From assembly GCA_963790475.1 (NCBI GenBank), contig CAWBOS010000013.1, positions 128,001 to 192,000 of the forward strand: 64,000 nucleotides of DNA. Direction: 5' to 3'. Within the stretch, counting starts at the first letter, position 1; every line of letters begins with the position of its first letter. A program made the position numbers and the translations under genes. The DNA is from an uncultured delta proteobacterium (GTDB lineage Bacteria; Desulfobacterota; RBG-13-43-22). The notes below the pieces were generated by a model, which did not search any database, was not told the origin of the DNA, and saw nothing but the letters and a program-made list of their open reading frames with translations. Below, piece by piece: positions 30,416 to 54,629 of the stretch.

Positions 30416-30490
30416 GCCGGCGTAGCTCAGGGGTAGAGCAGCTGATTCGTAATCAGCAGGCCGCGGGTTCAAATCCCATCGCCGGCTCCA
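30416..30490 (+). tRNA. tRNA-Thr(CGT)
   Basis: Cloverleaf: GCCGGCG/CGCCGGC acceptor stem, anticodon arm GCTGA-TTCGTAA-TCAGC, GTTCAAATC T-loop, encoded CCA. Confidence 0.95.
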
Positions 30491-30947: not shown

Positions 30948-31058
30948 AGATATAGACCCATTCAGATATTTATAGGCACTGGAGATAATTTGTTCTCAAA
31001 TAATGAAAAAGCGCACTACTTTGATGATAATGGTCTGAAAAAACAAAGAGATAGAGAA

Positions 31059-32210
31059 ATGATCTTTATCAGTTATAGTCATGAAGATGAAGAACATTTA
31101 GAAAGATTACGCATCCACATGAAGCCATTAGAAAAAAGGGGATTGGTGGTTATATGGGATGACTCAAAAATAATAACTGGACAAAAATGGCAAGAAAAAA
31201 TTGAAACTGCGTTATCAAAAGCAAATATTGCAATCTTAATAATATCTGCAGACTTTTTTGCATCAGACTTTATTGCTGAAAAGGAGCTTCCCCCTATTCT
31301 AAAGAAGGCTGAATCAGAAGGAACAATGATAGTGCCTATAATTCTCAAACCATGTCGGTTTTTAAGGGAAGAGCACCTTTCAAAATTTCAAGCCCTAAAC
31401 CATCCTGACGAACCATTGCTATCAATGTCTGACATAGAACAAGAGAAAACATGGGATCGATTATCACAGCTCATTGAGACCGAGTTGAGGCGTCCCGACG
31501 AAGAGGCCATTTTAAATTATACAGAGAAGATCGGTACTAATAATAATGATGAATTGTTATACTTTAGGCGTGGCGTCTGTTATAAAAGGTTAGGAAAATT
31601 TCATGAAGCCATTTCTGATTTTTTAAGAGCAAAGGATATTGAACCGAAAGATCGATTCGTTTATTTTGAACTCGGTGACTGTTATAAAAAATTACATAAG
31701 TATTTAGATTCAATAAAAAATTATTTGAAATGTTTGGAATTTGAGCCTGATCCAAAACCTATTTTAAATAAATTAGGTTTAATTTTAAAGGATCTCGGCG
31801 GAGAACATTTTGATTTTTCTGGTTTAACCGCCTTGGATAAAAAATTGAGGTTACGTTGGGTAAGAAACGCTAATTTGTCACCTAAGAGATTAACTTGGGA
31901 TGAAGCTAACCATTTTTTACAAAATTTGAACATAGAAGGTTATGCCGGATACAATGATTGGAGATTACCTGATATAGGTGAGCTTGTGACATTAATTAGT
32001 TTTGTCAAAAATATTGGGTACGAGAAAAAGTTTGGAAGATTATTTAATAAGATGGGATTTAATAATGTCCAATCTACAATTTTTTGGTCAAACGAAGTCG
32101 TTATGAAAAAACCTAATTGGGTTTACGCTATTAACATGAATTATGGAGGGAAAAGTCGACATAAGAAAATAGCCAAACATTGCATTTGGCCTGTGAGATC
32201 TGAATGTTAA
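31059..32210 (+). CDS. TIR_2 - TPR - DUF1566 (Lcl-like) fusion protein
   Basis: IFISYSH.D...W.D..I..G..W...I, SADFFAS.FI..KEL (TIR); YFRRG.CY..LGKF.EA/YFELG TPRs; LTW.EA..F...LN..GYAGYNDWRLP...EL...FWS...WPVR. Confidence 0.8.
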   Translation: MIFISYSHEDEEHLERLRIHMKPLEKRGLVVIWDDSKIITGQKWQEKIETALSKANIAILIISADFFASDFIAEKELPPILKKAESEGTMIVPIILKPCRFLREEHLSKFQALNHPDEPLLSMSDIEQEKTWDRLSQLIETELRRPDEEAILNYTEKIGTNNNDELLYFRRGVCYKRLGKFHEAISDFLRAKDIEPKDRFVYFELGDCYKKLHKYLDSIKNYLKCLEFEPDPKPILNKLGLILKDLGGEHFDFSGLTALDKKLRLRWVRNANLSPKRLTWDEANHFLQNLNIEGYAGYNDWRLPDIGELVTLISFVKNIGYEKKFGRLFNKMGFNNVQSTIFWSNEVVMKKPNWVYAINMNYGGKSRHKKIAKHCIWPVRSEC

Positions 32211-34827: not shown

Positions 34828-37508
34828 TGGCCTTGCATAAAGACTTTCCTGAATCCCCCTACGATATTCTTGACCCGGTCTTGCGTTGGTTTCCGGCCGA
34901 CGAATCGTTGCGCGAGACCACGATGGAAAAACTGATACCCCCGTTGGTGTCGCAACTACGCAATAAGGTGAAGGAATGGCGGGACAGCAGTTATGCCGGG
35001 GCCACGGATACCAGCAAGAGTTTGCTTAAATGGTGGTTTATTACCCCACACCTGCTGCCCAAGGCTGACGGCACCATGACCGAGTTTCAGTATTACTTTG
35101 CCCAGCGCGAGGCGCTGGAGACGATTATCTATCTTTATGATGTGGTTGGCGTCCAAGACAAGTTTGATCTCATGCGCTTTGACAGTTCCGGCGCGGTTTC
35201 GGCCGGAATGTTCGATGAAACCTGGCGACGTTTTGTGGTAAAAATGGCGACCGGCTCCGGCAAGACCAAGGTGTTGAGTCTTGTTCTGGCTTGGAGTTTC
35301 TATCATAAGCTTTATGAACCGGGGTCGGAGTTGGCTCGGAATTTTCTGGTAATCACTCCTAATATTATCGTCCTGGATCGCATCTATAAGGATTTTAAGG
35401 GCCTTGATATCTTTTTTAAAGACCCGGTTATTCCCGACAATGGCGTGGGCGGACGGAACTGGCGCGATGATTTTCAACTGACCCTGCACGTGCAGGACGA
35501 GGTGCGGATTACCCGTCCCACCGGTAATATCTTTTTAACCAACATTCACCGTGTTTATGCCGGGAATGATATTCCCCCTTCTCCTGATGACGAAGACCTC
35601 CGGGATTATTTCCTGGGGAAGCGTCCCAGCGGCGCAACTACCGATTCCAAAGTTGACTTGGGAATGATCGTGCGCGACGTTGATGAGCTGGTGGTCTTGA
35701 ACGACGAGGCCCATCACATCCATGACCCTCGCATGGCTTGGTTCAAATCCATCGAGGACATCCATAATCGATTGAAACAAAAAGGCGCGGCTCTCTCCCT
35801 GCAAGTGGACACTACCGCCACCCCAAAACACAATAACGGGGCAATCTTCGTCCAGACGGTGGCCGATTATCCATTGGTTGAAGCAATCTCGCAAAACGTG
35901 GTTAAACACCCGGTCCTGCCCGATGCCCCCAGCCGTGCCAAATTAGTGGAACGTCAGAGCGCCAAATTCACCGAGAAATACACAGATTACATCCACCTCG
36001 GGGTGATCGAGTGGCGCAAGACGTATACCGAGCATGAAAAACTGGGCAAGAAGGCCATCCTGTTCGTTATGACGGACGATACCCGCAATTGCGACGACGT
36101 GGCTGAATACCTTGAAAATAATTATCCCGATCTGAAAAACGCAGTCTTGGTCATTCATACTAAGACCAATGGTGAGATTTCCGAATCAACCTCGGGCAAG
36201 AGCAAGGAAGAGTTGGACAAACTTCGTGAGCAGGCGAACATTATTGATGAACTGGACAGTCCTTACAAGGCTATCATATCCGTGATGGTGCTCAAAGAGG
36301 GTTGGGACGTGCGCAACGTTACCACCATTGTGGGTTTGCGGGCCTATTCCGCCCAAAGCAATATTTTGCCCGAACAAACCCTTGGTCGCGGATTAAGAAA
36401 AATGTACCCCGGCAGCGTGGAAGAATACGTCAGCGTAGTCGGAACCAATGCCTTTATGGAATTTGTTGAATCGATCCAGGCCGAAGGGGTGGTCCTGGAC
36501 CACAAGCCTATGGGCGAGGGGACAGGCCCCAAAACCCCCCTGGTTGTGGAGGTTGATAGAGACAATATCAAAAAGGACATCGAGGCGCTGGATATCGAAA
36601 TTCCGGTGCTGTCCCCGCGGATCTATCGGGAATATAAGAACCTTAGCAGCCTGGACGTAAGCGCGATTGGGCACCAACGTGTCTTATACCTTCAATTCAG
36701 CGAAGAGGAGCAACGGGAGATCGTCTTTAAGGACATCACCACCGGGGAGGTATCCCACACAACAATTTTGGATACAGGAGGTGTTGCCGATTACCGCAGC
36801 GTTATCGGCTTCTTCGCCCAATCCATTATGAAAGAATTGCGGCTGGTAGGCGGTTATGACGTTCTATATGGAAAGGTCAAGGCGTTTATCCGGGATGATC
36901 TGTTCGACAGGGAAGTGGACCTCGAAAGCCCAAACACCTTGCGAAACCTGTCAGAGCCGGCAGCAACGATGACTCTGATTGGGACCTTTAAAAAAGCGAT
37001 CAATGCTCTCACAGTCCAAGACAAAGGGGACGCTGAAATCCGCGATACTATCAAACTAAGGCAGACGAGGCCCTTTGTGGCGAAGGAGCAAAGCTACCTT
37101 ATCCCGAAAAAAAGCGTTTTTAATCGTATTATCGGCGATAGCCATTTTGAATTGCTATTCGCCCGGTTCTTGGAAGACTGCGAAGATGTGATTTCCTACG
37201 CCAAGAATTATTTGGCTGTTCATTTCAAGCTGGACTACGTTAATGCGGCCGGTGATATTTCCACCTACTATCCGGATTTTTTAGTAAAGCTATCCGATAA
37301 TCGCATGGTCATTGTTGAAACCAAGGGGCAGGAAGAATTAGACGTACCCCAAAAAATGGACCGTTTGCGGCAATGGTGTGAGGATATCAACCGCGTCCAG
37401 TCCGATGTAAGATATGGCTTTGTTTATGTGGACCAGGAAAGCTTTGAGAGATTCAAGCCGGTCTCATTCAGGCAATTGGTTGAAGGCTTCAGGGAATACA
37501 AAAAATAA
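34827..37508 (+). CDS. res: Type III restriction endonuclease/helicase
   Basis: KMATGSGKT, NDEAHH, TATP, LKEGWDV, EQTLGRGLR, C-terminal YYPDF...VETKG nuclease. Confidence 0.88.
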   Translation: MALHKDFPESPYDILDPVLRWFPADESLRETTMEKLIPPLVSQLRNKVKEWRDSSYAGATDTSKSLLKWWFITPHLLPKADGTMTEFQYYFAQREALETIIYLYDVVGVQDKFDLMRFDSSGAVSAGMFDETWRRFVVKMATGSGKTKVLSLVLAWSFYHKLYEPGSELARNFLVITPNIIVLDRIYKDFKGLDIFFKDPVIPDNGVGGRNWRDDFQLTLHVQDEVRITRPTGNIFLTNIHRVYAGNDIPPSPDDEDLRDYFLGKRPSGATTDSKVDLGMIVRDVDELVVLNDEAHHIHDPRMAWFKSIEDIHNRLKQKGAALSLQVDTTATPKHNNGAIFVQTVADYPLVEAISQNVVKHPVLPDAPSRAKLVERQSAKFTEKYTDYIHLGVIEWRKTYTEHEKLGKKAILFVMTDDTRNCDDVAEYLENNYPDLKNAVLVIHTKTNGEISESTSGKSKEELDKLREQANIIDELDSPYKAIISVMVLKEGWDVRNVTTIVGLRAYSAQSNILPEQTLGRGLRKMYPGSVEEYVSVVGTNAFMEFVESIQAEGVVLDHKPMGEGTGPKTPLVVEVDRDNIKKDIEALDIEIPVLSPRIYREYKNLSSLDVSAIGHQRVLYLQFSEEEQREIVFKDITTGEVSHTTILDTGGVADYRSVIGFFAQSIMKELRLVGGYDVLYGKVKAFIRDDLFDREVDLESPNTLRNLSEPAATMTLIGTFKKAINALTVQDKGDAEIRDTIKLRQTRPFVAKEQSYLIPKKSVFNRIIGDSHFELLFARFLEDCEDVISYAKNYLAVHFKLDYVNAAGDISTYYPDFLVKLSDNRMVIVETKGQEELDVPQKMDRLRQWCEDINRVQSDVRYGFVYVDQESFERFKPVSFRQLVEGFREYKK

Positions 37509-37998: not shown

Positions 37999-39138
37999 AT
38001 GACGAGCCTATATAGTGATATACAGAAGGCAGATATAACTTCAGATCATTTTAAGAGTCCCACCCCAACCCCACCCCGTTACTATCAGACGCGGTTACGA
38101 TTCACCTCCCATCTTGAAGGAAGTTTAGAAGCGCTCGGAAAGATTTTGAAACGGTTGGCCGGAATGGACCTCCCGGGGAGAGATCAGGTAGCCGCCTATC
38201 TTCGCCACTTAACTCACGGCAATCGCCGACCGAGAACCCTGTACAGTCGGTTTGGCACCCTCGTTCTTTTTCTGGGACTGATACGGGACACCGGCAAAGG
38301 CTTTGAAGCCATTACCCGAAGTGATGTAGAGGCCTTTATCGAGCGAGAGCAGGACCGGGGGATTAAGATAACGACGATCAGGACCAGGCTGGTGAGTGTG
38401 CAGGCCTTTCTCCGCTATCTGGTGGAGGAAGGGATCGTTTCTGGGGATATATTCCGCAGTCGGAGGATACGGTTGCAGTTACCGGAGCGGCTGCCGCGGG
38501 CCATGGATCCTGACGATCTGCAGAAGCTGCTTTCCGTTATTCATGATATCCGTGACCGAGCTTTGATCCTGGTCTTGTTGCGGACTGGCCTGCGGATCGG
38601 CGAGTTGCTTCAGACCAAGATGACCGACGTCCATCTCCAGGAGCGGAAGATAGAGATTTACGAAGGGGAGAAGAACCGCCTGGGGAGGGTGGTCTATCTC
38701 AGCGACGATGCAGTTATAGCCCTGCGGAAGTGGTTGAAGAAGAGGAATCCCGGAGAGGAGTACCTGTTCTATGGGAAGAACGTCGAGACTTTGTGTTACA
38801 GCACCGCCCGGATCATCTTTCTGCGATATATATCCAAAGCGGGATTAGAGGGCAAGGGATATTCCCTGCATACCCTGCGTCACACCTTTGCCACGGAGTT
38901 GCTCAACGCCGGCATGCGTCTGGAGTGCCTCCAGGTATTGCTGGGACACCGGAGCATCGAGGAGACGCGACGTTATGCCCGGTTGACCGATAAGACCCGG
39001 GAGGAGGAGTATTTTAAGGCCATGTCGAAGATCGAGAGGAGGAAGAGTCATGATCGATGCGATCCTGAACTGGCGGCGATTTTTGAAGCGAAGGAACTGT
39101 TCGCCCCATTGCCTGAAGAACTATCTGAACCTCATTAA
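37999..39138 (+). CDS. Tyrosine recombinase A
   Basis: TGLRIGE, GEK, HTLRH, LLGH, TRRY: full catalytic set. Confidence 0.92.
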   Translation: MTSLYSDIQKADITSDHFKSPTPTPPRYYQTRLRFTSHLEGSLEALGKILKRLAGMDLPGRDQVAAYLRHLTHGNRRPRTLYSRFGTLVLFLGLIRDTGKGFEAITRSDVEAFIEREQDRGIKITTIRTRLVSVQAFLRYLVEEGIVSGDIFRSRRIRLQLPERLPRAMDPDDLQKLLSVIHDIRDRALILVLLRTGLRIGELLQTKMTDVHLQERKIEIYEGEKNRLGRVVYLSDDAVIALRKWLKKRNPGEEYLFYGKNVETLCYSTARIIFLRYISKAGLEGKGYSLHTLRHTFATELLNAGMRLECLQVLLGHRSIEETRRYARLTDKTREEEYFKAMSKIERRKSHDRCDPELAAIFEAKELFAPLPEELSEPH

Positions 39139-39937
39139 ACACTTTGTCATCTGGTTGGATGTGCCGGTGGAGGAGGTTACCTCTGCGGTCGTCTCCCGCT
39201 ACATTGAGCATCTGATGAGGAAGAGACTGGCGCCCAAGACAGTCAACTGTCACTTAAACGGCATCCGCCAGTTCTACCATTATCTGCGGGAGGAAGAAGG
39301 TCTGACCATCACCAATCCCATCAGGAAGCATCACTTCCAGAAGATGTCCAGGCCCCTTCCCCGGCACCTGAGAGATGAACAGGTGGAGACCTTCTTCCAG
39401 GCCATCAAGGGGGCCCGCGACCGGGCCATGTTCATGCTTATGCTTAGATGCGGGTTACGGGTGGAAGAAGTCGCCCATCTCACCATAGGCGTCATCGACG
39501 TCAAGCGCAGGACCATCCTGGTGGAAGACGGCAAGGGTGGAAAAGACCGGGTCGTCTATATGAGTCATGATGCCCTTCAGGCCCTGACCGCCTATCTGAG
39601 GGTGAGGCCTCTATCCAGAGCCAGTAGGATCTTTCTGGCGGAAAAGGCTCCCTGTAAGGGACAGCCCATTTCCATTCGTGGCATTCAGAGGCGCATGGAA
39701 TATTATGGCCGCCAAGCGAAGCTCAAGGTGTCCTGTCATCATCTTCGACACACCATGGCCACCCAGCTGCTCAACGCTGATGCCGATCTCTGCACCATCC
39801 AGGATCTCTTGGGTCATAGCAATGTGAAAACCACGCAACGGTACTGCCGGATATCAAACCTGAAAGTGCAGAGAGACTACTTCAAGGCCATGGAGGTGAT
39901 CAGGCTACAAACGGCTGGCAACCCAAATAATCCTTGA
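39050..39937 (+). CDS. Tyrosine recombinase B (XerC/D-like)
   Basis: CGLRVEE, GKGGKDR, HHLRH, LLGH, TQRY; overlaps recombinase A by 89 nt. Confidence 0.92.
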   Translation: MIDAILNWRRFLKRRNCSPHCLKNYLNLIKHFVIWLDVPVEEVTSAVVSRYIEHLMRKRLAPKTVNCHLNGIRQFYHYLREEEGLTITNPIRKHHFQKMSRPLPRHLRDEQVETFFQAIKGARDRAMFMLMLRCGLRVEEVAHLTIGVIDVKRRTILVEDGKGGKDRVVYMSHDALQALTAYLRVRPLSRASRIFLAEKAPCKGQPISIRGIQRRMEYYGRQAKLKVSCHHLRHTMATQLLNADADLCTIQDLLGHSNVKTTQRYCRISNLKVQRDYFKAMEVIRLQTAGNPNNP

Positions 39938-40183
39938 CAAAAGAACTAAACTATGAAATTTTAAACAGTACCTAACCCATTAACTTCAATAAGAAAATCA
40001 GACTTTAGTACGTATAGCTTCCTGTAGTCCGCAGATCTCTATTTTTGAAAAACCGCAAGAGTACGAACGGAAATCGTTAATAAAAATACCTTGTTATTTC
40101 AGGAAATTCAACAGATAATAAAGTATTCCCAACAAGTTTACCTATTTTTTGCTTTCAATCCCTCTCGATAGAATTGGAGAATA

Positions 40184-41605
40184 ATGAGCATACGGGATAC
40201 CATGAAGAAGCTATTGGGTGGTAAGCCCGTTGATATCGGTGAGCTTAATAGGCGAACAACACGGGAATCTTTGCAGAAGGTTCCTATCCCCGTACCCAAA
40301 AACCCTCTTGAAGGGATTCACATCACTGATGAATTTAGAACAGTCGAGTCTTTGCTTGATGCTGGCTACCCAGTAGTCTTCGTCTCTGGCAATGCTGGCA
40401 CGGGAAAGTCAACATTGATCCATTATCTACGAACTGTCCTAAAGAAGAAGTTGGTAGTTGTAGCCCCAACTGGTGTGGCTGCCCTGAACGTCGGCGGCGT
40501 TACAATTCATTCATTTTTCCATCTCCCCCCGAAGATCCACGAAGACGAAGATATCAAACTCGTATATGACAGGAGGCTTTACCAGAAACTAGACTTGCTT
40601 ATTATCGATGAAGTCTCAATGGTCCGATGTGATCTCATGGACAGCATTGACAATTTCCTCAAAAAGAATAGGGCGAACAATGACCCCTTCGGTGGCGTTC
40701 AATTGCTACTGATTGGCGACCTCTTTCAATTGCCGCCTGTCGTTCCTAGGCAGGAAATGGTTATATTAAAAGAGAAGGGATACTTCAGCCCTTACTTCTT
40801 TAGTTCGTTTAGCCTGCAGAAAAGTTCCCTGGTTCCCATTGAGCTTACATTTGTCTATAGACAAGAGGACTCCTTTTTCGTATCTCTGCTGAATAGTTTG
40901 CGGATAGGGGAGAACGTAGATTTAGCAACTGCCGAGGTCAATTCCCGGTGTTATTGGAACGGAGATGTATCTACAGACATCACTCTGACTTGCACGAACA
41001 TAAGGGCTGACCAAATCAACATGGATGAATTGCACCAGATACTTGAAAGAGAGTATGCCTTCAAAGGCGAAATCAAAGGACGGTTCTCTCTTGAAGAAGA
41101 CAAACTGCCTTCCCCGCTTGACCTAAGGTTGAAAGTCGGTGCACGAGTTATGTTCACCAAGAACGACGATCACCGAAGGTGGGTCAATGGAACTCTCGGT
41201 ATCATACGACATATAGACCAAAAATCAATCGGCGTTGAACTTGTTACTGATCAGAAAGGGTCAAACTTTGATGTTCAAAGGGTTACATGGGAGACATACA
41301 AGTATGCCTACAGCCCCGAGAAGGACCAGATACTTGCGAAAAAAGTAGGCGAGTACACACAGTATCCCTTAATGCTGGCATGGGCCGTCACTATACACAA
41401 GAGTCAAGGCAAGACCCTGAAAAACGTCCTGGTTGATCTGGGCAATGGTGCATTTACTTCTGGCCAGGTCTACGTGGCGCTTAGTCGTTGTCGATCTATA
41501 AAAGACATCCGTCTCGCACGTCCACTTCGGAATACAGACGTGAAATGTGATCCTTTGATTAAAAGATTCTACCTAACTTTGGATGAAATGAAAAAGAGAA
41601 TGTGA
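40184..41605 (+). CDS. Pif1-family (SF1B) DNA helicase
   Basis: GNAGTGKS, APTGVAA, TIHSFF, IDEVSM, GDLFQLPPV, YRQ, LKVGARVM, YPLMLAWAVTIHKSQG, GQVYVALSR. Confidence 0.9.
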   Translation: MSIRDTMKKLLGGKPVDIGELNRRTTRESLQKVPIPVPKNPLEGIHITDEFRTVESLLDAGYPVVFVSGNAGTGKSTLIHYLRTVLKKKLVVVAPTGVAALNVGGVTIHSFFHLPPKIHEDEDIKLVYDRRLYQKLDLLIIDEVSMVRCDLMDSIDNFLKKNRANNDPFGGVQLLLIGDLFQLPPVVPRQEMVILKEKGYFSPYFFSSFSLQKSSLVPIELTFVYRQEDSFFVSLLNSLRIGENVDLATAEVNSRCYWNGDVSTDITLTCTNIRADQINMDELHQILEREYAFKGEIKGRFSLEEDKLPSPLDLRLKVGARVMFTKNDDHRRWVNGTLGIIRHIDQKSIGVELVTDQKGSNFDVQRVTWETYKYAYSPEKDQILAKKVGEYTQYPLMLAWAVTIHKSQGKTLKNVLVDLGNGAFTSGQVYVALSRCRSIKDIRLARPLRNTDVKCDPLIKRFYLTLDEMKKRM

Positions 41606-41609
41606 TTTA

Positions 41610-42390
41610 ATGGAAAATTATTCAGACCACCTAATGCCCGAAGAGAAAGAACTTTTTGAAAAAAAGAAGGAATTAACAGTTCTTGAAGAAGAGTTGTTCC
41701 AGCAGGAGTTGGATTTGGCAACGACAAAGGCCGATCTTCTGGTATATGAAGGGAAGTATATTCGTATTGTTGGTAGCCTTTATGCAGAACTTGATGAGAT
41801 AGAGGCCCAAATATCTGAAGCAGAAGCAAACCTTGACCTTAATAACAAAGAGACTTTATTTAAAGCCAAAGAGGCCCGTCGAAAGGCACAAGAATCCCAC
41901 GAGGCTACCACATCTGCCATAATAGAAAAGGCACAAAAAAAATTCCGGCCATCAGATGAAATTAAAAAACTTTATCGTCAGGCGGCTAAAGCTATGCATC
42001 CGGATTTGTCAACAGACGAAAAGTCACACACTATACGAAAACAAATGATGGCTGAAGTAAACCTCGCTTACGAAGAAGGAAGCGAAGAAAAGCTGTGTGA
42101 AATTTTAAGACGGTGGGAAACTAGTCCGGATTCTGTTGAGGGGGAAGGGGTTGGAGCGGAGCTAATTAGAATAATCAGAAAAATTACTCAAATAAAGGAT
42201 CGATTAAAGGCTATTAAAGTTGAAATTTCGGATTTAGAGAAATCAGAATCTTTGGAAGTTAAAGGAAGAAATCAAAAAAGCAGAAAAAGAGGGAAGAGAT
42301 CTTCTTAAGGAAATGGCCGATAGACTATATGATCAAATACTGTCGGCAAGAGCCAGATTAAAAAATGTGAATATAAAAACCAGTGGTTAA
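41610..42390 (+). CDS. Coiled-coil protein with J-domain-like HPD motif (probable frameshift ~42250)
   Basis: KKLYRQAAKAMHPDL...MAEVNLAY; the shifted frame continues LWKLKEEIKKAEKEGRDLLKEMA... to TAA at 42388-42390, overlapping the next ATG. Confidence 0.75.
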
Positions 42391-44045
42391 TGGTTAATGG
42401 AATGACTGATAATACTGAAAAGCAAACAAGTTTAATCTCCTTAAGCAAGTTAGAAATAGCAAAATATTCTCAAGGCTTAATTAAAAGGGGGATAGAGTTA
42501 ACTAAGGAGATAAATTTACAAGTCATAAAGAGCGCAAATGACTATTTTGACGTAGGGATAGGATGCTATGAAAAGAAAGATTTTGAGGGGGCTATTGCAA
42601 ATTTTACGAAATCGATTGCAATAGATGTTGATTTTTCTCAAGCCTACCTATATCGGGGGAAAGCTTTTTGTTATAGAACAAATAAAGAATGGAAAGCTGA
42701 ATACACAAATTTAATAGTCAAAGGAAGTTATGTTAAAGACGACAATGACCCTTTTGTTTTTAGTTCACGGCTAACTCACTTGGATACTTTCAATAATGTC
42801 TGTTTTTATTTACTCCAAGGGATTTGTTTTATGCAAGATATTTCCGGGGATGATAATGCACCTAATCGGCCTAATGGAGAAAAATTTGAAATATCCTCTG
42901 ATGATTTATTTTCTTATTTTGCAAAGCCAATAGTTCCTATGCGTGTTAAATCTGTCAATATTTTTTTGGCTTCTCCTGCAAAGATTGAAGGGAATTCTTT
43001 TGGTGAGATAAAAACGCCTGATACTCTTATCAAAATCAGATTGGGGCAGATAGATCGAAGACCATTCCGGTCTAAATATAGTTATAAGCCAAAAATGAAG
43101 GGATTATTTTGTTGTAGGATATTTGGGCCTATTAAGGACTATGAGTGTATTTGTGGCAAATACAATCTGATGAAGCACCGCGGAGTTGTCTGCGAAAAGT
43201 GTAGGGTTGAGGTCATTCAGTCCAAGGCCAGGCGACAGCGCATGGGACATATTAAGCTGACAATTCCAGTGGTCCACACTTGGTTTCTTAAATATCTCCC
43301 TTATCAAATTGACATACTTTTGGATATGCCAAGAGAGGAATTAGAAAAAATAATCTATTATAACTCATGGATTGTTCTTGACCCTCGTCAAACATCACTT
43401 AAGAGAAGAGAAGTGCTGGATAAAGAGGGATATAAACAGGTTATAAAGAATTATGGTTTTAATTCATGTGAAATGAGTTCGGGGGCTGAGGCAGTTAAAA
43501 GATTACTTGAAGAGTTAGATCTTAAAAAAACAACCGACCAAATACTATCAGACATTAATAAAACAAATTCAGAAATAAAAAAGACTTTTCTAAAGACAAG
43601 ATTGGAGACTATTAATTATTTCATTAGAACAGGAGTTAAACCGGAATGGATAATTCTTAACGTTTTGCCTATAATACCACCAGGTTATAGGCCGCTCTTC
43701 CCAGATAGTTTTGAAATAAGTCTCAATCATCATTACAAAGTTGTCATTAACCAGAATAATTATTTGAAGCGATTACTTGATCAAAATCTCCCTGAGGCAA
43801 TTATTACGATGGCGAAAAAAACCCTTCAGAGGTCTGTCGATGCTCTTTTTGAGAACGAGCAATTTGGAAAAGATCCAAGGGATTATGAACAAGCTATTTC
43901 TGATTTTGATACTTTTATGAGATTAGAACCCAACAGAGAAGAGCCGTATTTTTATCGAGGAGTATTTTTTTTAGAAAGAGGGAGGATTGATGAGGCGTTT
44001 AAAGATTTAAATCATATATCATCTTTTAGAAAGAAAGAAGATTGA
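42390..44045 (+). CDS. TPR protein with an inserted RNA polymerase beta-prime (RpoC) N-terminal clamp domain
   Basis: TPRs at both ends (YFDVG..CYEKKDFEGAIANFTKSI..D..F..AYLYRG; DYEQAISDF..F.RLEP....YFYRG); aa ~184-489 follow RpoC: LASP, GEIKTPDT, GLFC.RIFGPIKDYECICGKY, GVVCEKC.VEV...RR.RMGHI.L..PV.H.WF, GAEAVK.LL, PEW.IL..LP.IPP..RP, VIN.NN.LKRLL, LQ..VDALF.N. Confidence 0.9.
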   Translation: MVNGMTDNTEKQTSLISLSKLEIAKYSQGLIKRGIELTKEINLQVIKSANDYFDVGIGCYEKKDFEGAIANFTKSIAIDVDFSQAYLYRGKAFCYRTNKEWKAEYTNLIVKGSYVKDDNDPFVFSSRLTHLDTFNNVCFYLLQGICFMQDISGDDNAPNRPNGEKFEISSDDLFSYFAKPIVPMRVKSVNIFLASPAKIEGNSFGEIKTPDTLIKIRLGQIDRRPFRSKYSYKPKMKGLFCCRIFGPIKDYECICGKYNLMKHRGVVCEKCRVEVIQSKARRQRMGHIKLTIPVVHTWFLKYLPYQIDILLDMPREELEKIIYYNSWIVLDPRQTSLKRREVLDKEGYKQVIKNYGFNSCEMSSGAEAVKRLLEELDLKKTTDQILSDINKTNSEIKKTFLKTRLETINYFIRTGVKPEWIILNVLPIIPPGYRPLFPDSFEISLNHHYKVVINQNNYLKRLLDQNLPEAIITMAKKTLQRSVDALFENEQFGKDPRDYEQAISDFDTFMRLEPNREEPYFYRGVFFLERGRIDEAFKDLNHISSFRKKED

Positions 44046-44204
44046 TGAAGCGTTTGCGGATTTAAACATTTAACATCGCTAAAATAGAATTGGTTCAACA
44101 AGAAAAGTTTGGATTTGTTCAAAAAGTAAGCGACTATTTATTAAGTTTTTGGAAAAGAAACGGATTCAGTCAAGATATTGACCCGAGATTAAAAGGCAAG
44201 CAAA

Positions 44205-45053
44205 ATGGAGTTTGTAGATTGTCGTAAATGCGGGTTTAAAAATCCTCTTCCTATCTATGAGATGATATGCGGTAATTGCGGATATCGTCTTTACCTTGGT
44301 CGAAATGCTCAATATGTAGAAAGGGAACTTACGCAAGGTACGCCCACGTGGCATGATTGGCGAAGAGAAGGAATAGGTGCGTCGGAAGCGCCTACTGCTA
44401 TGGGCGTGTCTAAGTTTATGTCTATTGAGAAGTTGGTAAAGATTAAGACCGGAAAGACGCCCGAACCGCCTTCAAATAAATATATGAGTCGAGGGAAAGA
44501 ACTGGAGAAACCTGCAAGGGAATTGTATATCAAAAAGACAGGCATAACCGTTCATCCGTCATGTCTTGAATCGCTTGACCGGGGATGGATGAGAGCAAGC
44601 CTGGACGGATGGTCAAAAGAAAACCATCTCGTAGTCGAAATCAAGTGTCCGCAGGGAGAGAAAGACCACTCGCAAGCACTTAGGGGAAAAGTTCCAGAGC
44701 ATTACTATCCACAACTTCAACACATTCTTGCGGTAACTGGCTTTTCAGAGATTGACTATTGGAGCTTTCGGAAAGGTAAGGGAGTCCTCCTGAAAGTTAA
44801 GAGGGATGAGAATTATATCCAAAAACTTATTTCGACTGAAGTGAAGATATGGCATAGAATTACATCGGATAAAAATTTTAATAGTGGCAGCAAAGTTGTT
44901 TTAACCTGCCCAAATCCAAGTTGTTCAAAAGGGCTGAAGGTCTCAACTGGTGGAGATTTACCAAGGAGGGTATTTGTCTGTATGCACTGCGGGATTGAAT
45001 TTGAATTATATGAGAGTCCTTGGGGTATCAAGCCTCGTATCAAATCTAATTAG
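44205..45053 (+). CDS. YqaJ/lambda-exonuclease-family nuclease with N- and C-terminal zinc ribbons
   Basis: QGT..W..WRR.GIGASE, RG.ELE..AR, ASLDG, EIKCP, YYPQLQH; CRKC/CGNC and CPNPSC/CMHC. Confidence 0.85.
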   Translation: MEFVDCRKCGFKNPLPIYEMICGNCGYRLYLGRNAQYVERELTQGTPTWHDWRREGIGASEAPTAMGVSKFMSIEKLVKIKTGKTPEPPSNKYMSRGKELEKPARELYIKKTGITVHPSCLESLDRGWMRASLDGWSKENHLVVEIKCPQGEKDHSQALRGKVPEHYYPQLQHILAVTGFSEIDYWSFRKGKGVLLKVKRDENYIQKLISTEVKIWHRITSDKNFNSGSKVVLTCPNPSCSKGLKVSTGGDLPRRVFVCMHCGIEFELYESPWGIKPRIKSN

Positions 45054-45115
45054 TGTCCATCCGGAAGTGGACTTTCCCATATCATATAGATAGGGTTGGG
45101 GTATTGAGCGTGGAT

Positions 45116-45895
45116 ATGAAAATCCTGGATAATCTGAGCTACGTTCCGATTGGTAGATGCATATACTGCGGAGATACTGAAGACCTGCAGAAAGAACATA
45201 TCCTCCCATTCGGTTTAGGGGGCACTACCGTTTTGCCAGATTCAACATGTAGAGAGTGCGCGAAAATTACAGGGCAGGTGGAGCAGAAGGTCCTCCGCGG
45301 TCCAATGTGGGGTCTACGGATTTACCGAGGACTAAAGTCCAGAACAAAACATGAAGAGGCTCCTAAATGTTACCCCCTTAAAATCATAAAGAACGGAGCG
45401 GAACAGTTAGTTGAACTGTCTATCAATGAATTCCCCATAATGTTGCATTTTCCGATTTTTGAACCGCCTGCATATCTGAATCCAAATGCCTATAAAAAAG
45501 GCATCTTGGTGAGCGGTGTTGTTACCGTTTCTTTCGGGCCACGCCCCGAAGAAGTTGCTCGGACATTAGGTGCCAAATCTATCTCTATTAGCCAAGACCA
45601 GGAACCAGTTGCATTTGCCCGCATGATAGCCAAAATAGCGTATTCTTGGGCGGCAGCAGAGGGCAAACTTGATCTTTTGCGAGGCGCTTCTCCAGTTGTC
45701 TCAGCTATTTTGGGCAAGACAGACGATATCGGTCGCTGGGTTGGTACGGTTACTGATCACATACAGAAGCATAACGGTTTGCTGCACCGTATACTGATTC
45801 ATGAAGATGACGACAGGCACCTTCTAATCGGGGAGGTCCACCTGTTCAGTGACTCTGAAACGCCCAAATATGGAGTAATCCTTGGTGAAATCTAA
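45116..45895 (+). CDS. HNH-endonuclease-like protein
   Basis: CIYCG...EHILPFGLGG...CRECA; start at 45116 or 45053. Confidence 0.7.
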   Translation: MKILDNLSYVPIGRCIYCGDTEDLQKEHILPFGLGGTTVLPDSTCRECAKITGQVEQKVLRGPMWGLRIYRGLKSRTKHEEAPKCYPLKIIKNGAEQLVELSINEFPIMLHFPIFEPPAYLNPNAYKKGILVSGVVTVSFGPRPEEVARTLGAKSISISQDQEPVAFARMIAKIAYSWAAAEGKLDLLRGASPVVSAILGKTDDIGRWVGTVTDHIQKHNGLLHRILIHEDDDRHLLIGEVHLFSDSETPKYGVILGEI

Positions 45896-46048
45896 GCCTA
45901 CCTACTTATCGCTTAAAGAGACAGTGCACTGGATCGCCGACAAATCCAGCTCTCGGTGACCTCAGCGTTATTTACTAACTTTCATATCGTAAGTGTTGCC
46001 CTTTTTGCTTCGCAAAAGTAACCATTTGTAGGTGAACTTAGCATTTGA

Positions 46049-46405
46049 TTATTGGCAATGAGGCCGGTCCGGGTTCTTCCACCGGCCTCCCCAAACTCCT
46101 CCAACCGATTCCCAAAGGTGGCCCGCCTCATCATAATCAGGCCCGGCGCTCTGATTGGTATCGACCTTGATATCCCAAACGGGCTTTCCGTCCCAGGTGA
46201 TCGCAAAATCAAAGACCCGGGCTTTGTCGTTATCCGGATCATGGGCTCGATGTCAACGATATGCAACGACTTCAAGGTCCAGGTGATTATCCTGTTTTTG
46301 GGATCGTGGATGGGGGTTAGCCCAACCAGCCAGCGATAGGAACAGGCCACCCTGGTCGGACAATACCGTAATCTCTTCCCCCCCGGTTACTATTTTAGAT
46401 CTCAT
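46049..46405 (-). pseudogene. Relic of a phage-type M15 peptidase (endolysin)
   Basis: Fragments IITWTLKSLH and ARVFDFAITWDGKPVWD...YDEAGHLWESVGGVWGGRWKNPDRPHCQ* in different frames. Confidence 0.65.
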
Positions 46406-46418
46406 TCCTTTGTCTCAT

Positions 46419-46495
46419 AAAACAAAACCCCCACCTCTCTTTGAGAAATGGGGGTTATCATTCTTCCATGGATGCTCACATTCTGAAGGCTGCCG
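46419..46495 (-). repeat. Conserved leader/terminator element, copy 3 (diverged)
   Basis: GGCAGCCTTC...ATG GAA GAA TGA TAA CCCCCATTTCTCAAAGAGAGGTGGGGG TTTTGTTTT. Confidence 0.7.
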
Positions 46496-46575
46496 GTGTA
46501 ACGGTCAAGGGGAAAGCTATCTCTATCCCACATTCGTCGCGGTATGATTTTCGGAATAAAGTGTCAGAGTTTTTT

Positions 46576-47186
46576 TTAATTTCTCAACCTTTCCTGTTTT
46601 TTCCATTTATAGTATTTCTCGTTTGCCAACCGCAACATATCAAAGTCTCCAGGACTATCCCCATAGGCATATATGTTTTTAAAATTTTCCAGATTGAAAT
46701 ATTCTTTTATCCTCTTTATTTTTTCCGCACCGTAACAGTTTTTTCCTGCTATTCTTCCTGTAATTCTCGATTCAATCACCTCCAACTCTGTGGCAATCAA
46801 ACCAAAACCATATTTTTTACACCAATGCTTTAAATAATCTTCGATTGAAGCTGAGACAATCACAATTTCATGTCCGGCGGCTTTATGAAACTGTAATCGT
46901 TCTATGGCTACCTTTCTTATTAAATTGGGCAATTTTTTATTAGAGAAGTGGATAGCCTGTTCCTCGAATAATTTTTTTTCCCATCCACCAAAATAATATC
47001 TGAGAACAGCCTCTTTAGCCTTCCAGTTTGGCAATACTTTGAGTTTATAGGCGATAACAATTGGGCTTAATAATAAAGAACCCATTAAAACCTAGGGTAG
47101 CCAACGGCAAACAGTATAAAATCAATGAAGCTGTCACGATAAGTGATTGTGCCGTCAAAGTCAAAAAGAACAAGCGTGTTTTTCAT
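46576..47186 (-). CDS. HAD-IB family hydrolase (frameshift in T run ~47090)
   Basis: MKNTLVLFDFDGTIT, IVSAS, NCYGAEK, AYGDSPGD..ML. Confidence 0.8.
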
Positions 47187-47539
47187 GGTTTTTGGAAACG
47201 GATCATTTTATATATGATTTGTCATTGAAAAAATTTGATATTAATTTTCTCGAAATTTCCTATTCTTTAATTAGAAAAAAGCCAATGAATTTAATAAACA
47301 GAAAGCATTTGCACCGAATTTTTTACCCTTGTGTGTGTGAAGCGAAAGGAGTCCCATTCCCTATTGACACCCCCCCTCACTTTTGGTCCCCCCCTACCCA
47401 CTGTGCTTTAACTGTGCAGTTGCCATTAATAACCAGCATGAAATGACATCACGTCTCAAAGGCTTTTCTTCCGCCATTTATCTTGAATTTATTGTAATTA
47501 TGAGTTATGATGAAATAAAAAGTGGGATATGGAAAATAC

Positions 47540-47584
47540 TTCGTAATCAGCAGGCCGCGGGTTCAAATCCCATCGCCGGCTCCA
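47540..47584 (+). repeat. att duplication (3' 45 bp of tRNA-Thr)
   Basis: Identical to 30446-30490; followed by an IHF-like AATCAACTGGTTA. Confidence 0.95.
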
Positions 47585-47644
47585 CTTCAAATCAACTGGT
47601 TACGAATGAGTTGATCTATGGCCGCGTCGTGATCGGATGATCTG

Positions 47645-47826
47645 GGCAGGTCTCCATAAATATCCGATGTGCCCTCTAACTACTATCACCCAATTGCTCC
47701 TGCATGTACTTGGGATTCTGACCGGCCTCAATTTTCAGCTGGGGTTGGTATGCTTGAGATCGTGAGATCTGTTTTTGGCAACTTTCGCCCGGCTCAAAGC
47801 CGGATAAAAAATCCTTTTCAGCATAT
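47645..47826 (-). pseudogene. Degenerate tyrosine integrase C-terminus
   Basis: Fragments RIFYPAL..A...RSHDLKHT / IEAGQNPKYMQEQLGDSS / TSDIYGDL across frames with stops. Confidence 0.7.
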
Positions 47827-47982
47827 AGGGTTGAAGATGGAAGCAGATAGGTAAACGCGGAAAAATAAAGTTTTAAGTAGTGGCATGTGGTTCTTTTCTC
47901 AAACGTCATTTTAAAATTTGGACGATTCTGGCTGATTTCTAATGAGAATCATTGGCAAAACATCCTAACAAGAATTCATATC

Positions 47983-48780
47983 CTATAATGTCCAAATACA
48001 CTTAACAAAACGGTATGGGTCCTCCTGGATTTTATCAGTGATTCCGCTTGAGGGGAAACCGTTGAGAGATGCCTCTACATAGCGGCGGAGCTTCTTCTTG
48101 GCCCGTTTGGTATCGAACTCCGGGTCACCCTCAATTTTCTTAATCAGCTTATAATAGCTTTCCACAGGCGCATAAGTTTCGAGAACGTCCAGAATAAATT
48201 TTTCCTGAATAGCCTGTTTCATGGTGTAACTGTGAAGAGGGCGGTGTTTGATTTTACCGCCCAGTTCATAACCCTCGCCGAAAATTTCAAGGGTCTTATT
48301 CTTTGGCGTGGCCGTAAAGGCAAAATAACTCGCATTAGACAGGAGCTTCCGGGCCTCCATGATGCGGTTGATTTTATCCTCTGTGGTTTAACCATCTTCT
48401 TCTGCCCCGGTTGTGGATAGTGCTGCGCTTACCGCCGCTGAGGTTTTGCCGCCCTGACTCGAATGGGCCTCATCGATGATGATAGCAAAGTTGTTCCCCC
48501 GTTGCTCGTTCCCGATTTCGTCGAGGATATAAGGGAACTTTTGGACCGTGGAGATAATGATTTTCTTGCCGCTTTTAATAAACCTGCGCAAATCTCCCGA
48601 ATGCTCGGCATGTCCAACCGTCGCCCCCACCTGGGCGAACTGCTTGATGGTATCACCGATCTGTTTGTCGAGGATCCGCCGGTCCGTAACGACGATGATC
48701 GAATCAAAGACGACCTTATCGTTTATAGTAAGGCCGATGAGCTGATGGGCGAGCCAGGCGATGGAACAACTCCGGGCTGT
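47983..48780 (-). pseudogene. hsdR: Internal fragment of type I restriction subunit HsdR
   Basis: SIAWLAHQL, VVTDRRILD, STVQKF, IIDEAHSSQ, FAFTATPK, YTMKQAIQE; truncated at both ends. Confidence 0.8.
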
Positions 48781-48907
48781 GGCTTTTATCACCGGGCAAA
48801 CTCTTCGAGCAGTTGATAGCTCTTTCCAGATAACCTGTCTGGTGTCATCTTCTGCTACGGGACCGTGTTGAAATAAATCAGACATATTACAAAAGTCTCT
48901 GTCATTT

Positions 48908-49510
48908 TTACCGATCGTAGCCGGAACAAGGGATGCAGACATGTTTTTCGCCCAGAACCCGGAGATAGGCCTTGGCCGTCAGCTCCCCGCAAACGGCGCA
49001 GGGGGTGAACCCCATTATTTCGGGAAACCAATCACCTTCGTATTGTTTGACTTCACCGATGGTAAGGACATCAGACTCCGGGGCATCCCAGACGAGATTT
49101 ACCAGCTCTTCCTGCTCTTCAAGGGGAATGTCGTCGGGCATGATGCCCATCCCCCGTTTACGCATAAAGGCCGATTCGCCAATCTGTTTTTGCAACGTGG
49201 GTTTATAGCTGACCCGTACAGAGCGGTTGGTAGCCTTGTCAATGAGGGTGAAAGCAAGCTTGCCAAGGGGTTTTTTGTTGATGTTGCCCTTGCCGAAAGT
49301 GCAACCGGTGGCATACTGGACACCGTCGCCAAAGCACATCCCGCCATGGTCCTCCCCGATCTCTACGATACCGAAAAGCTGTGTGCCGCCGGAGCGCTTC
49401 ACGCCCAACGTCCGCAAAGCCGCCAGCCCGACACGCACACCCGCTACGCTGGCCCAGCACTTATGTCCGTGAAATTTCAATGCGTCCATCAAGATTACTT
49501 TGTCATCCAT
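48908..49510 (-). CDS. FmdE-family protein
   Basis: FHGHKC, CFGDGVQYATGCTFGKGN, CAVCGE...CIPC. Confidence 0.85.
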   Translation of the reverse strand: MDDKVILMDALKFHGHKCWASVAGVRVGLAALRTLGVKRSGGTQLFGIVEIGEDHGGMCFGDGVQYATGCTFGKGNINKKPLGKLAFTLIDKATNRSVRVSYKPTLQKQIGESAFMRKRGMGIMPDDIPLEEQEELVNLVWDAPESDVLTIGEVKQYEGDWFPEIMGFTPCAVCGELTAKAYLRVLGEKHVCIPCSGYDR

Positions 49511-49613
49511 AGTTTCCTCCCTTCAAATTTATTTATCTGAAAAATGAAAATTATTAATCCGCTCTTTAAAAAATGACCCTCCAGTGTCCATGGCCGTCGC
49601 TCCTTTTAGTCCA

Positions 49614-50381
49614 TTAGAAAACGTGCAAGAGTTTAAGGGCGATCTGGGTTGCGAAAAACCACATGATGAATGAGAAGGCCACCTTGACGAAGGTCGGGCT
49701 CGCCTTCACGGTGACGTGTGAACCCACGGCCGAACCGATAATGCAGGCCACGGTAGCCGCCGCCAGGAAGCGATAATCCACCTGACCTAAGGCGAAGTGG
49801 CCGATGGTTCCGACGAAGGAACTCACGGTCACGATAAGGGAGTTGGCCCCGGCCGCCATCTGCGCCCTATACTTCATGTAAAGCACAAGAAAGGGGAAAA
49901 TGATGAGCCCGCCGCCCACGCCAATGAGGCTCGAGAGGATGCCTACCCCAAAAGAAAAGGCGGTGATCAGTACGATCATCGCCGTGGTCATTTTCCTCAC
50001 CGTTTGGCCGGCCTTTTCCTTGGCGGAGAAGATCATGAGAAGGCCCACACCGTACAGGAAAACGGAGAATATCCCGAGCAGGAGGTTTCTGGGGGCCATG
50101 CTGGAGAGCACCGCCCCTATAAATGAGCCCACGATCGTCCCCGGAAGAAAGACAAGGCAGAAACGGTAGTCCACCAGCTTATTCCGCTGGAAAACAATGG
50201 TTGCCACCAGCGCCGTCACCAAGTTGAGGAAGATGGCGGTGGAGATAGCGGGCTCTACCGCCATGCCAAGCATCACCAGCACGGGAGTATAAAGTGAACC
50301 TCCTCCCTTGCCAAACATGGAAAAGACGGACGAGATCACTAAGATGGTTACGAAGCCAATAAACAGAAACGAGGTACTCAT
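49614..50381 (-). CDS. TauE/SafE (TSUP) family exporter
   Basis: FGKGGG.L..P.L and LIGVGGG..I.P.L repeats; ~8 TM helices. Confidence 0.85.
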   Translation of the reverse strand: MSTSFLFIGFVTILVISSVFSMFGKGGGSLYTPVLVMLGMAVEPAISTAIFLNLVTALVATIVFQRNKLVDYRFCLVFLPGTIVGSFIGAVLSSMAPRNLLLGIFSVFLYGVGLLMIFSAKEKAGQTVRKMTTAMIVLITAFSFGVGILSSLIGVGGGLIIFPFLVLYMKYRAQMAAGANSLIVTVSSFVGTIGHFALGQVDYRFLAAATVACIIGSAVGSHVTVKASPTFVKVAFSFIMWFFATQIALKLLHVF

Positions 50382-50471
50382 TTTCCTCCTCCTTAAATGA
50401 CGCAGGGCGTAAAGCCCCGCGCCCGAAAATCTATTGACCTGGATTTTACTTTAAAATCAGATCAACTCGCT

Positions 50472-51080
50472 TCAGGCGGTATAGCCGGAACAAGGGATAC
50501 AGACTAATTGACCCTCATCGGTCACGCGCATCCTGTTTATAAAAGTCAGCTCACCGCATCCGGCACAACGCTTTGCCGTGAAGCATCCTTTCCCCTTTTT
50601 GACTTCCACCTGATGCACGGCGCCGATATCCAAAAATGCGCTTTCTTCCAGGGCAAGAATTCGCTCGACAAGGGGATCGGTTATTTCGGGCTCGATGTTC
50701 TGTGGCGGCACTCCAGCTTTACGTTTCTGAACAAAGGGTGAAGCGAGGGCCTTTTCGAAAAAATCCGCCTTTAGTGAGACTCTCACCGCTCGACCGGTCT
50801 TCTGATCGATTAACGTGAAGGCCATCTTATTGAAATAGCGTTTCTCAATATTCGATTTGCCGTAGGTGCAACCTGTCGCGGTCATGATGCCATCCAAAAA
50901 ACAGCCCGCCGCATGGTCCTTCCCGGTCTCCGAGACCACCAAGAGTTCTTTATCCTGGGCACGGTCCACCCCAAGGACCTTCATAGCCGCCATTCCAGCC
51001 CTTAGACCCATAGGCATGGCCGGACACTTATGTCCATGAAATTTCAAACCCACTTCAAACAATTCTTTTAAATCCTTCAT
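50472..51080 (-). CDS. FmdE-family protein
   Basis: FHGHKCP, CFLDG...[16 protein letters not shown]...CIPC. Confidence 0.85.
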
Positions 51081-51270
51081 AATAATACCTCCTTCGCCAT
51101 ATTTTTTTCTTTCATTCAACTACACCTTATCTCTGTGTTCAAGACTGACCCTCACGCGTACCCAGGTGGCTATGATTAAGTGGTATTCGGGTTACGGGAC
51201 TGCCTTGCTTGCTGCAACTCCCGCCAGTCTTTCTATTTTTTACATCCGGGCTAATCCTTTATCTGTAACT

Positions 51271-54618: not shown

Positions 54619-54629
54619 AGCTGTGCCTA

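Follow-up and report, generated by a model that had tools for sequence, protein, structure and literature searches.

A J-domain protein and a leader-bearing partner form a widespread two-gene family, met here as a β′-clamp-carrying pair in a tRNA-Thr island of mixed cargo

Do five close, co-oriented genes in one genomic island make one system? The question is raised by a 64,000-nucleotide stretch of DNA (the window) from an uncultured delta proteobacterium (Desulfobacterota, lineage RBG-13-43-22; GenBank assembly GCA_963790475.1, contig CAWBOS010000013.1, forward-strand positions 128,001–192,000). Positions 40184–45895 of the window encode a Pif1-type helicase, a J-domain protein (here J), a tetratricopeptide repeat (TPR) protein carrying part of the RNA polymerase β′ clamp, a YqaJ-family nuclease and an HNH endonuclease. 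A preliminary description had read these as a putative new multi-gene anti-phage or conflict system, allowing that YqaJ and HNH might be independent cargo, and our open reading frames (ORFs) and Pfam matches agree with its account of five co-oriented genes and their domains. The answer to the question is nonetheless negative: J and the gene directly after it, which we term X, are the sole conserved functional unit among the five and represent a widespread, unnamed two-gene family, defined in this analysis as J–X. The five genes are a mosaic of unrelated island cargo, with Pif1, YqaJ and HNH separate from J–X.

Gene neighbourhoods were compared from the J, Pif1 and HNH sides, and the idea of one five-gene system fails from all three. 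None of the J loci compared, 90 besides that of the window (80 from metagenomes, 444,927 bases, and 10 from genomes), holds a homologue of the island's Pif1 family, YqaJ or HNH; one of them holds an unrelated RecD2 helicase. None of four close Pif1 loci, taken from species genomes, holds J, X or HNH, and neither of two HNH-homologue loci holds the other genes within ~7 kb. The preliminary description had itself staked the single system on co-occurrence in other genomes; because homologues do not co-occur, it is refuted on those terms. Composition agrees with this result, the G+C content at third codon positions (GC3) being 0.33 in J and 0.30 in X and 0.49, 0.39 and 0.46 in Pif1, YqaJ and HNH. 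The tight coupling that had been described stands for J and the clamp gene, whose pairing is conserved far beyond the host, and falls for linkage to Pif1, YqaJ and HNH. PADLOC returned no system match, as had been anticipated: J, X, YqaJ and HNH match none of its families (PADLOC-DB 2.0), and the matches of Pif1 (typeIV_RecD, 6.9e-23; PDC-S68, 1.8e-21; Nhi, 1.1e-3) concern the generic helicase core only. Close spacing within an island did not, in this case, equal a single system.

The helicase has affinities of its own. Its homologues are many, the 120 listed being 56–89% identical and drawn from several phyla; homologues of HNH are present in 2 of 400 further genomes from the phylum, and viral contigs gave no HNH relatives. 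In one of the four Pif1 loci (L010) a YqaJ gene lies directly upstream of the Pif1 homologue, and in another DUF2779 and PD-(D/E)XK genes stand beside the helicase. Pif1 homologues with nucleases are a recurrent helicase–nuclease theme, independent of J–X, in which YqaJ is a recurring type of neighbour, and Pif1 and YqaJ may be a helicase–nuclease pair in their own right. Among the 120 listed homologues, two are fused to Cas4/PD-(D/E)XK nuclease domains and eight to a topoisomerase-type zinc finger (fused homologues: P0165, P0192, P0212, P0219, P0227, P0233, P0234, P0237 and P0239).

Linkage of J to X, by comparison, is close to universal. A J profile search of metagenome contigs returned 548 relatives, from which 80 loci were kept; 66 of these contain a complete J gene with at least 300 nt downstream. 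A co-oriented ORF follows J in 66/66, starting −25 to +30 nt from the J stop in 58 and with an exact 4-nt overlap in 40 (downstream ORFs were chosen by a simple script, and some boundaries are approximate). Three genomes of the phylum share this arrangement, as does Granulicella tundricola pACIX902. There RefSeq labels J ‘hypothetical protein’ and X ‘tetratricopeptide repeat protein’; the genes have an 11-nt overlap, and X bears a variant of the leader described below. A J relative in Paraburkholderia phymatum has no obvious X downstream.

The X proteins range from 96 to 903 residues and are mostly unrelated along their length, with a mean column identity of 7%. Common to them is an N-terminal leader of ~35 residues with a near-invariant L-x2-R-G core. 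Of the 66 X proteins, 62 match a leader profile (among the 19 outside its alignment, 15 do), as opposed to 9 of 963 other ORFs of the same loci; those nine are mostly a tandem second X or a true X missed by the ORF script. Run against 1.84 billion cluster representatives, the 44-position profile found 325 proteins at E ≤ 0.001, and for 147 of the 150 listed the match starts no later than residue 6. X of the window matches it with E-values of 4.2e-7 in that search and 5.1e-12 within its own genome, a match that is partly circular since this X contributed a row to the alignment behind the profile. The host genome has a single J gene and a single leader-bearing gene, both in the window. Comparison of the sequences shows that X is translationally coupled to J and that everything behind the leader is interchangeable. 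Several loci carry a tandem second leader-bearing gene after X (L058, 1421–1894; L069, 2064–2684; L091, 2804–3976; L101, 2319–3545; L102, 4699–5835) and one has a leader-bearing gene upstream of J (L064, 793–1356); one J scaffold may serve several partners.

The family is broad in range and patchy in any one lineage. J was found in 11 of 400 further genomes from the phylum, in none of 10 sampled from the host's own genus and in 548 or more metagenome contigs, and J–X comprises hundreds of sequence clusters from Acidobacteriota, Chloroflexota, Verrucomicrobiota, Nitrospirota and the window's own phylum. When the two nearest ORFs on each side of the pair were collected (the first 150 of 159 picked), they matched 132 Pfam families, the commonest having four members (TsaD, DinB_2), and no defence or mobile-element family recurs among these 150. 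No J relatives were found in IMG/VR viral contigs or in 50,697 phage records, and they occur in 2 of 72,556 plasmid records. Given such varied contexts and negative viral contigs, J–X is a self-contained cellular module that does not normally belong to islands or phages; the island of the window is just one of the many settings in which it is met.

J is a helical protein of ~260 residues with a central J domain and, judged by its sequence, a genuine J-domain protein. The HPD motif (H130-P131-D132) is invariant in 28/28 aligned homologues and in 49/49 of a second alignment, J-domain helices II–III accompany it, and a search of the family profile against the PDB returns J domains only (2ej7, 2.2e-5; 2lgw, 5.2e-4); no NCBIfam model names J. 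As read, the window J has 232 residues, against 255–262 in homologues, and one extra base (A) at 42247 puts it out of frame. The preliminary description had placed a frameshift near 42250 and proposed a TAATG overlap with X once it is corrected: the +1 frame indeed continues the C-terminus of the homologues, and its TAA (42388–42390) overlaps the ATG at 42390. The 4-bp gap it gave between Pif1 and J can likewise be read directly in the sequence. An independent contig from another public run (200 nt, 42140–42340, depth 2.88) is without the base at 42247, leaving J in frame; the extra A is either an assembly error or a variant.

Within X of the window, residues 171–494 are 48% identical to residues 2–314 of the host RpoC, with the C-x-C…C-x2-C motif kept, and match E. 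coli β′ 17–314 (3.2e-86) and TIGR02386 (3.2e-90). The segment starts at the β′ N-terminus and ends at the rudder (residue 314). Catalytic domain 2 and the rest of β′ are absent, X having no PF00623, PF04983, PF05000 or PF04998 match, and its score against the NCBIfam rpoC model is 303 bits, against a cut-off of 963.5. The predicted protein carries a β′ fragment and is not an RNA polymerase subunit; the host retains a normal 1390-residue rpoC. TPR flanks on either side match X of locus L053 (39% identity over residues 6–94, 46% over 499–539), and since these flanks are related to other X proteins, it was a TPR-type X that acquired the β′ piece. That capture is old, because the segment shares the low GC3 of the gene around it (0.32; host rpoC, 0.58) and no RpoC is more than ~53% identical. 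Across 40 RpoC rows, 173 columns show an invariance of 95% or more; X retains 108 of them, with 50 kept and 14 changed in the Zn-binding region (host 50–124) and 28 kept and 26 changed in the clamp helices and rudder (host 250–324). An AlphaFold model of X is confident at the TPR ends and at β′ ~130–250 only, with no TPR–clamp packing seen. A public-run contig spans the TPR-to-RpoC junction (42836–43024) without difference, the contigs of that run covering the stretch in part; contamination of the assembly is 9.68%.

Searches for a second clamp-bearing X were negative throughout. Residues 95–170 of X have no similarity upstream of rpoC or elsewhere in the host genome. A word-indexed search of 5.8 billion clusters gave 1613 matches, of which the 119 listed besides the query are RpoC pieces of at most 49% identity, none with TPRs; seven seeming stand-alone N-terminal β′ pieces turned out to be frameshifted or cut rpoC genes with out-of-frame tails. 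Genomes of 60 relatives hold only their own rpoC and no clamp-bearing X, a second match in G043 not having been examined. A second rpoC match in G017 was rejected: it is a fragmented rpoB–rpoC copy beside the L10 gene (L008, G017:C19:76000–95500, ~6000–14000, − strand), probably contamination or a degraded duplicate and not a clamp-only gene. The ESM Atlas minus RpoC families gave TPR clusters at 0.78 only, which is not evidence for a clamp-bearing relative, and none of 120 leader-bearing representatives of at least 100 residues matches the host rpoC.

What stands behind the leader in other members is most often a repeat array, with family matches to TPR in 23, Sel1 in 21 and LRR (leucine-rich repeat) in 8 of 70 X proteins. 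Single X proteins adjoining J carry REC+TonB_C, GGDEF, GAF+GGDEF, WG repeats or a WD40/β-propeller; at L058, X holds an Hsp70 substrate-binding domain (SBD) 53% identical to a host Hsp70-family gene, and at L025 it combines Sel1 with σ70 region 4. Leader-bearing representatives whose gene context was not seen widen the range further: P0387 has σ32-like regions 1.2, 2 and 4 (NCBIfam RpoH model, 3.1e-60), P0489 joins S21 to an Hsp70 SBD, P0384 is an Hsp70 SBD alone, and others carry FGE-sulfatase domains or WD40 arrays. The leaders of the σ32-like and S21–SBD proteins are of the same subtype as that of the window X.

Two lines of evidence bear on the role of the leader. All six sampled genomes of one family of the phylum encode J in direct fusion with an LRR part, the leader being absent (loci L028–L031, L033 and L034; genomes G268, G182, G366, G047, G085 and G120). 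The fused LRR is homologous to the LRR-type X proteins; the fusion measures 439–451 residues, the match sitting in frames of 443–471 residues in all six genomes, and at L028 its gene overlaps an upstream Hda/DnaA-like ATPase gene by 4 nt, with ruvB preceding that. One more fused form of J occurs in another family. Loss of the leader in the J–LRR fusion is what one would expect of an element that serves solely to dock X on J. The second line is a complex model of the intact L053 pair, built from J and X residues 1–60 with alignments of our own, which gave an ipSAE (interaction prediction score from aligned errors) of 0.72, the best of three controls reaching 0.00; among 80 solved complexes 58 attain this mark, as do 2 among 110 mismatched pairs. 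Across three runs the contacts agree to at least 71% and the partner has a predicted local distance difference test (pLDDT) score of at least 56. The modelled interface sets leader residues 19–38 against J residues 48–59, 96–101 and 214–240, with conserved positions on both sides, and supports a leader that would dock on J.

We consider it probable, with moderate confidence, that J–X acts as a J-domain co-chaperone in two parts and takes DnaK to the binding targets of X. Helices at the N- and C-termini of J would form the groove in which the leader helix docks; the J domain would recruit and activate the host Hsp70 (DnaK), which would thereby be brought to the target of X's variable part, or to X itself. 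Such a pair would amount to a class C J-domain co-chaperone divided between a constant subunit and an exchangeable one that does the targeting; here the latter would be a TPR array into which β′ 2–314 was integrated long ago. For the pair of this island, the most likely target of DnaK is a factor whose usual docking place is the β′ N-terminal/clamp region.

Several observations weigh against this co-chaperone reading. Recruitment of DnaK is something that we infer from the J domain alone, and the window J matches Pfam DnaJ (PF00226) at 1.2e-5 and 25.7 bits, the family cut-off being 27.8. This J is frameshifted, and its intact frame comes from a single 200-nt contig of depth 2.88, possibly of the same sample. 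The complex model used alignments of our own, hence its calibration holds only roughly, and AlphaFold is poor for X residues 102–298 (mean pLDDT 63.8). The clamp-bearing X is a singleton among all searches, so comparison cannot probe its function. GGDEF, REC and FGE-sulfatase domains in some X proteins fit X as a regulated client at least as well as X as an adaptor. Lastly, X lacks the σ-docking residues of the coiled coil, with Q, A and S where E. coli β′ has R275, E295 and A302. Substitutions R275Q, E295K and A302D impair holoenzyme formation (PMC8321222). Because these positions are changed while the Zn-binding part is kept, canonical docking of σ region 2 is doubtful, and the ligand of X is probably not σ70 bound in the canonical way.

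The best-surviving alternative, which we regard as possible but unlikely, sees in J–X an immune sensor or neutraliser that works as an ‘integrated decoy’: X would trap an invader protein and J would hand it to DnaK or signal via DnaK. The variable part of X would then either recognise patterns through its repeats (LRR, WD40, TPR, Sel1) or copy host machinery that phages attack (β′ clamp, σ, DnaK SBD, S21). Host-machinery domains do stand behind the same leader, both beside J (β′ 2–314 in the window, σ70 region 4 at L025, the Hsp70 SBD at L058) and in the context-less P0387 (σ32-like), P0489 (S21 and SBD) and P0384 (SBD), yet neither J nor X has an effector domain or a PADLOC match. The clamp's lost σ-docking residues, which would leave host σ untitrated, the patchy distribution (11 of 400 genomes of the phylum, 0 of 10 of the genus) and the company of TIR and type III restriction–modification (R-M) genes all suit a decoy; the lack of any recurrent defence or mobile family among 150 flanking ORFs, the 2 hits in 72,556 plasmid records and the housekeeping look of the J–LRR fusion, present in 6/6 genomes of its family and lying downstream of ruvB and an Hda-like gene, do not.

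A more general form, doubtful in our judgement, would make J–X an Hsp70-coupled surveillance module in which a constant J scaffold holds exchangeable bait subunits and a capture is passed to DnaK or read via DnaK availability. It is just as doubtful that the baits fall into two kinds, some being repeats and others decoys of hijacked machinery (β′ clamp, σ32/σ70, DnaK SBD, S21).

No better placed is the idea that X is itself the client: J would tether DnaK to X and hold its output off or on, and diversion of DnaK by unfolded proteins or infection would release X. This would be a stress-gated switch resembling the control of σ32 by DnaK and DnaJ, to which we give a similarly low probability. Most X proteins, being plain protein-binding repeats with no output (23 TPR, 21 Sel1 and 8 LRR of 70), fit it poorly, as do the fusions, which retain the LRR and drop the leader in keeping with a docking element and not a DnaK-binding site; it gains from the output domains of some X proteins (GGDEF, GAF+GGDEF, REC+TonB_C, FGE-sulfatase), from the one σ32-like leader-bearing protein and from the several loci with two X genes behind one J.

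That Pif1, J, the clamp protein, YqaJ and HNH are one anti-phage system of sensor, chaperone adaptor and DNA-degrading effectors is very improbable: co-orientation, close spacing without a + strand terminator-like site among them, an island shared with other defence genes, YqaJ adjoining Pif1 in one of four loci and 2 of 120 listed Pif1 homologues fused to PD-(D/E)XK or Cas4 are outweighed by the absence of co-occurrence (0/90 J, 0/4 Pif1 and 0/2 HNH loci), the differing composition of the five genes and PADLOC matches to the generic helicase only. Equally hard to credit is decaying junk, a frameshifted J beside a chance TPR/rpoC-fragment chimera and possibly an assembly artefact, since, for all the frameshift, the singleton status of X and the contamination of the assembly, a 551-codon frame is intact despite clamp divergence to 48% identity and low GC3 throughout, the Zn-binding cysteines and 108 of 173 RpoC-invariant positions are retained, public-run contigs cover the TPR–RpoC junction unchanged and one is without the extra J base, and the leader and TPR flanks match other X proteins (L053, 39% over residues 6–94).

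The element that carries the pair is 17.1 kb long, lies at tRNA-Thr and is bounded by exact 45-nt direct repeats (Table 1). It has the tRNA end, direct repeat, internal integrase and deviant composition of a tRNA-integrated island, its G+C content being 0.44 and that of the flanks 0.50 and 0.54. The preliminary description had pointed to a tRNA island with defence genes, and the 45-nt attachment (att) repeats, the TIR gene and the type III R-M genes bear this out, the last two by Pfam and PADLOC matches (30990–32210 and 32575–37508); two recombinases, Pif1, J, X, YqaJ and HNH complete the contents. Beyond the 4-bp Pif1–J gap and the 1-nt J–X overlap, X and YqaJ are 159 bp apart and YqaJ and HNH overlap by 1 nt. 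A scan of 39800–47700 found no terminator-like site on the + strand between the five genes; promoter-like sites number 22, against 17.3 ± 4.2 in shuffled sequence, with no excess, and terminator-like sites 7 against 7.0, so that neither count is informative on co-transcription.

Table 1. Features of the island and of the J–X pair, in window coordinates
Feature	Position	Strand	Evidence or remarks
tRNA-Thr (CGT)	30416..30490	+	ARAGORN; its 3′ 45 nt (30446–30490) are the left att repeat
TIR-TPR-Lcl_C protein, island cargo	30990..32210	+	Pfam TIR_2 6.5e-15; PADLOC ThsB-like 1.3e-21
Type III R-M	Mod 32575–34827; Res 34668–37508	+	Pfam/PADLOC MTase_III 1.8e-98, REase_III 1e-19
Two overlapping tyrosine recombinase genes	37999–39138; 39050–39937	+	Phage_integrase 8.8e-39, 5.5e-39
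Pif1/RecD-type SF1B helicase	40184..41605	+	PF05970 8.9e-30
J-domain scaffold gene (J)	41610..42390 in frame; 41610–42308 as read	+	PF00226 1.2e-5
X, 551-residue partner of J	42390..44045	+	Leader, TPRs, integrated β′ segment, C-terminal TPR pair; PF04997 RNA_pol_Rpb1_1 8.9e-41
Leader core of X (residues 12–38), predicted J-docking helix	42423..42503	+	Near-invariant L30, R33, G34; L053 complex model
Integrated RNA polymerase β′ residues 2–314 in X	42900..43871	+	Zn-binding domain, lid, clamp helices up to rudder; catalytic domain absent
YqaJ/lambda-exonuclease family nuclease, Zn-ribbon-like ends	44205..45053	+	PF09588 1.5e-25; TIGR03033 1.1e-35
HNH_5 endonuclease	45053..45895	+	PF14279 7.6e-7
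Right att repeat	47540..47584	+	Exact 45-nt copy of the tRNA-Thr 3′ part; direct-repeat family D2

Other features of the window lie apart from the pair. An 87-nt repeat (84% identity) at 30860–30946 and 32444–32530, upstream of the TIR and Mod genes, ends in a G+C-rich hairpin and T-run and may be a small repeated terminator or mobile element; a similar hairpin at 46426–46456 (− strand), near the island's right end, is the strongest terminator-like site. The Res ORF overlaps the Mod gene by 160 nt, and the Res protein has C-terminal TnsA-like (2.5e-5) and RE_endonuc (9.7e-4) matches. Past the right att repeat, G+C content is uneven over 47585–57000 (0.39–0.53) before reaching ~0.62 at 57 kb, and a further inserted segment adjoining the island's right side is possible. 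An 18-nt unit is present in three exact tandem copies at 53274–53327.

J-domain proteins decide where Hsp70 acts, and bacterial class C members are mostly uncharacterised. In J–X the choice of target would lie on a separate, swappable subunit, and docking by a short leader would offer a simple, testable rule for redirecting Hsp70. The β′, σ and DnaK pieces carried by X members suggest that the chaperone system and the transcription-initiation interface are directly connected, a connection so far unexplored, and cultured carriers exist (Granulicella tundricola MP5ACTX9). The family is apparently undescribed: literature searches found neither J–X nor a β′ clamp decoy, including in the available parts of PMC7159879, PMC10410713 and PMC8321222, whose supplements could list such architectures.

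Compared with known systems, the island resembles Gabija, Hachiman, Nhi, PDC-S68 and PDC-M16A in having a Pif1/RecD-type SF1 helicase near nucleases, and departs from them in that PADLOC matches the helicase core only and no gene linkage is conserved. Plant nucleotide-binding leucine-rich repeat proteins with integrated domains (NLR-ID) and bacterial NLR-like sensors share with J–X the placing of repeats or host-target copies on a constant signalling part. One of them, bNACHT25, senses phage through DnaJ, a link between the Hsp70 system and phage sensing (PMC12169576). Unlike NLR-type sensors, J–X has no STAND NTPase and no effector domain, and any defence role of J–X would be putative.

Cyanobacteria make the N-terminal part of β′ as a polypeptide of its own, the split γ subunit RpoC1. 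X resembles RpoC1 and β′ in that its residues 171–494 are homologous to β′ 2–314, and differs in stopping at the rudder, without the domain 2 catalytic loop, and in being embedded in a TPR protein with a leader predicted to dock on J. DnaK and DnaJ control σ32 in competition with the RNA polymerase core. As in that control, J–X may set Hsp70 at the σ–core interface, given X members with a β′ clamp (the window) or σ32-like regions 1.2–2 and 4 (P0387); a dedicated J protein replaces DnaJ, however, and positions 275, 295 and 302 are changed in the window X.

The nearest parallel may be among J-domain proteins with TPR client-binding domains, of which DNAJC7 and DNAJC3 are examples. Class C J proteins with TPRs, the ‘DnaJ-TPR’ class of PMC10410713, resemble J–X in combining an HPD-bearing J domain with target-selecting repeats, so that Hsp70 is recruited to particular clients. 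In J–X these functions are divided between two polypeptides that an N-terminal leader would join, being fused in one bacterial family, with LRR; and, unlike the DnaJ-TPR class, J–X sets its J domain in the middle of a helical scaffold and swaps the targeting part among many domain types.

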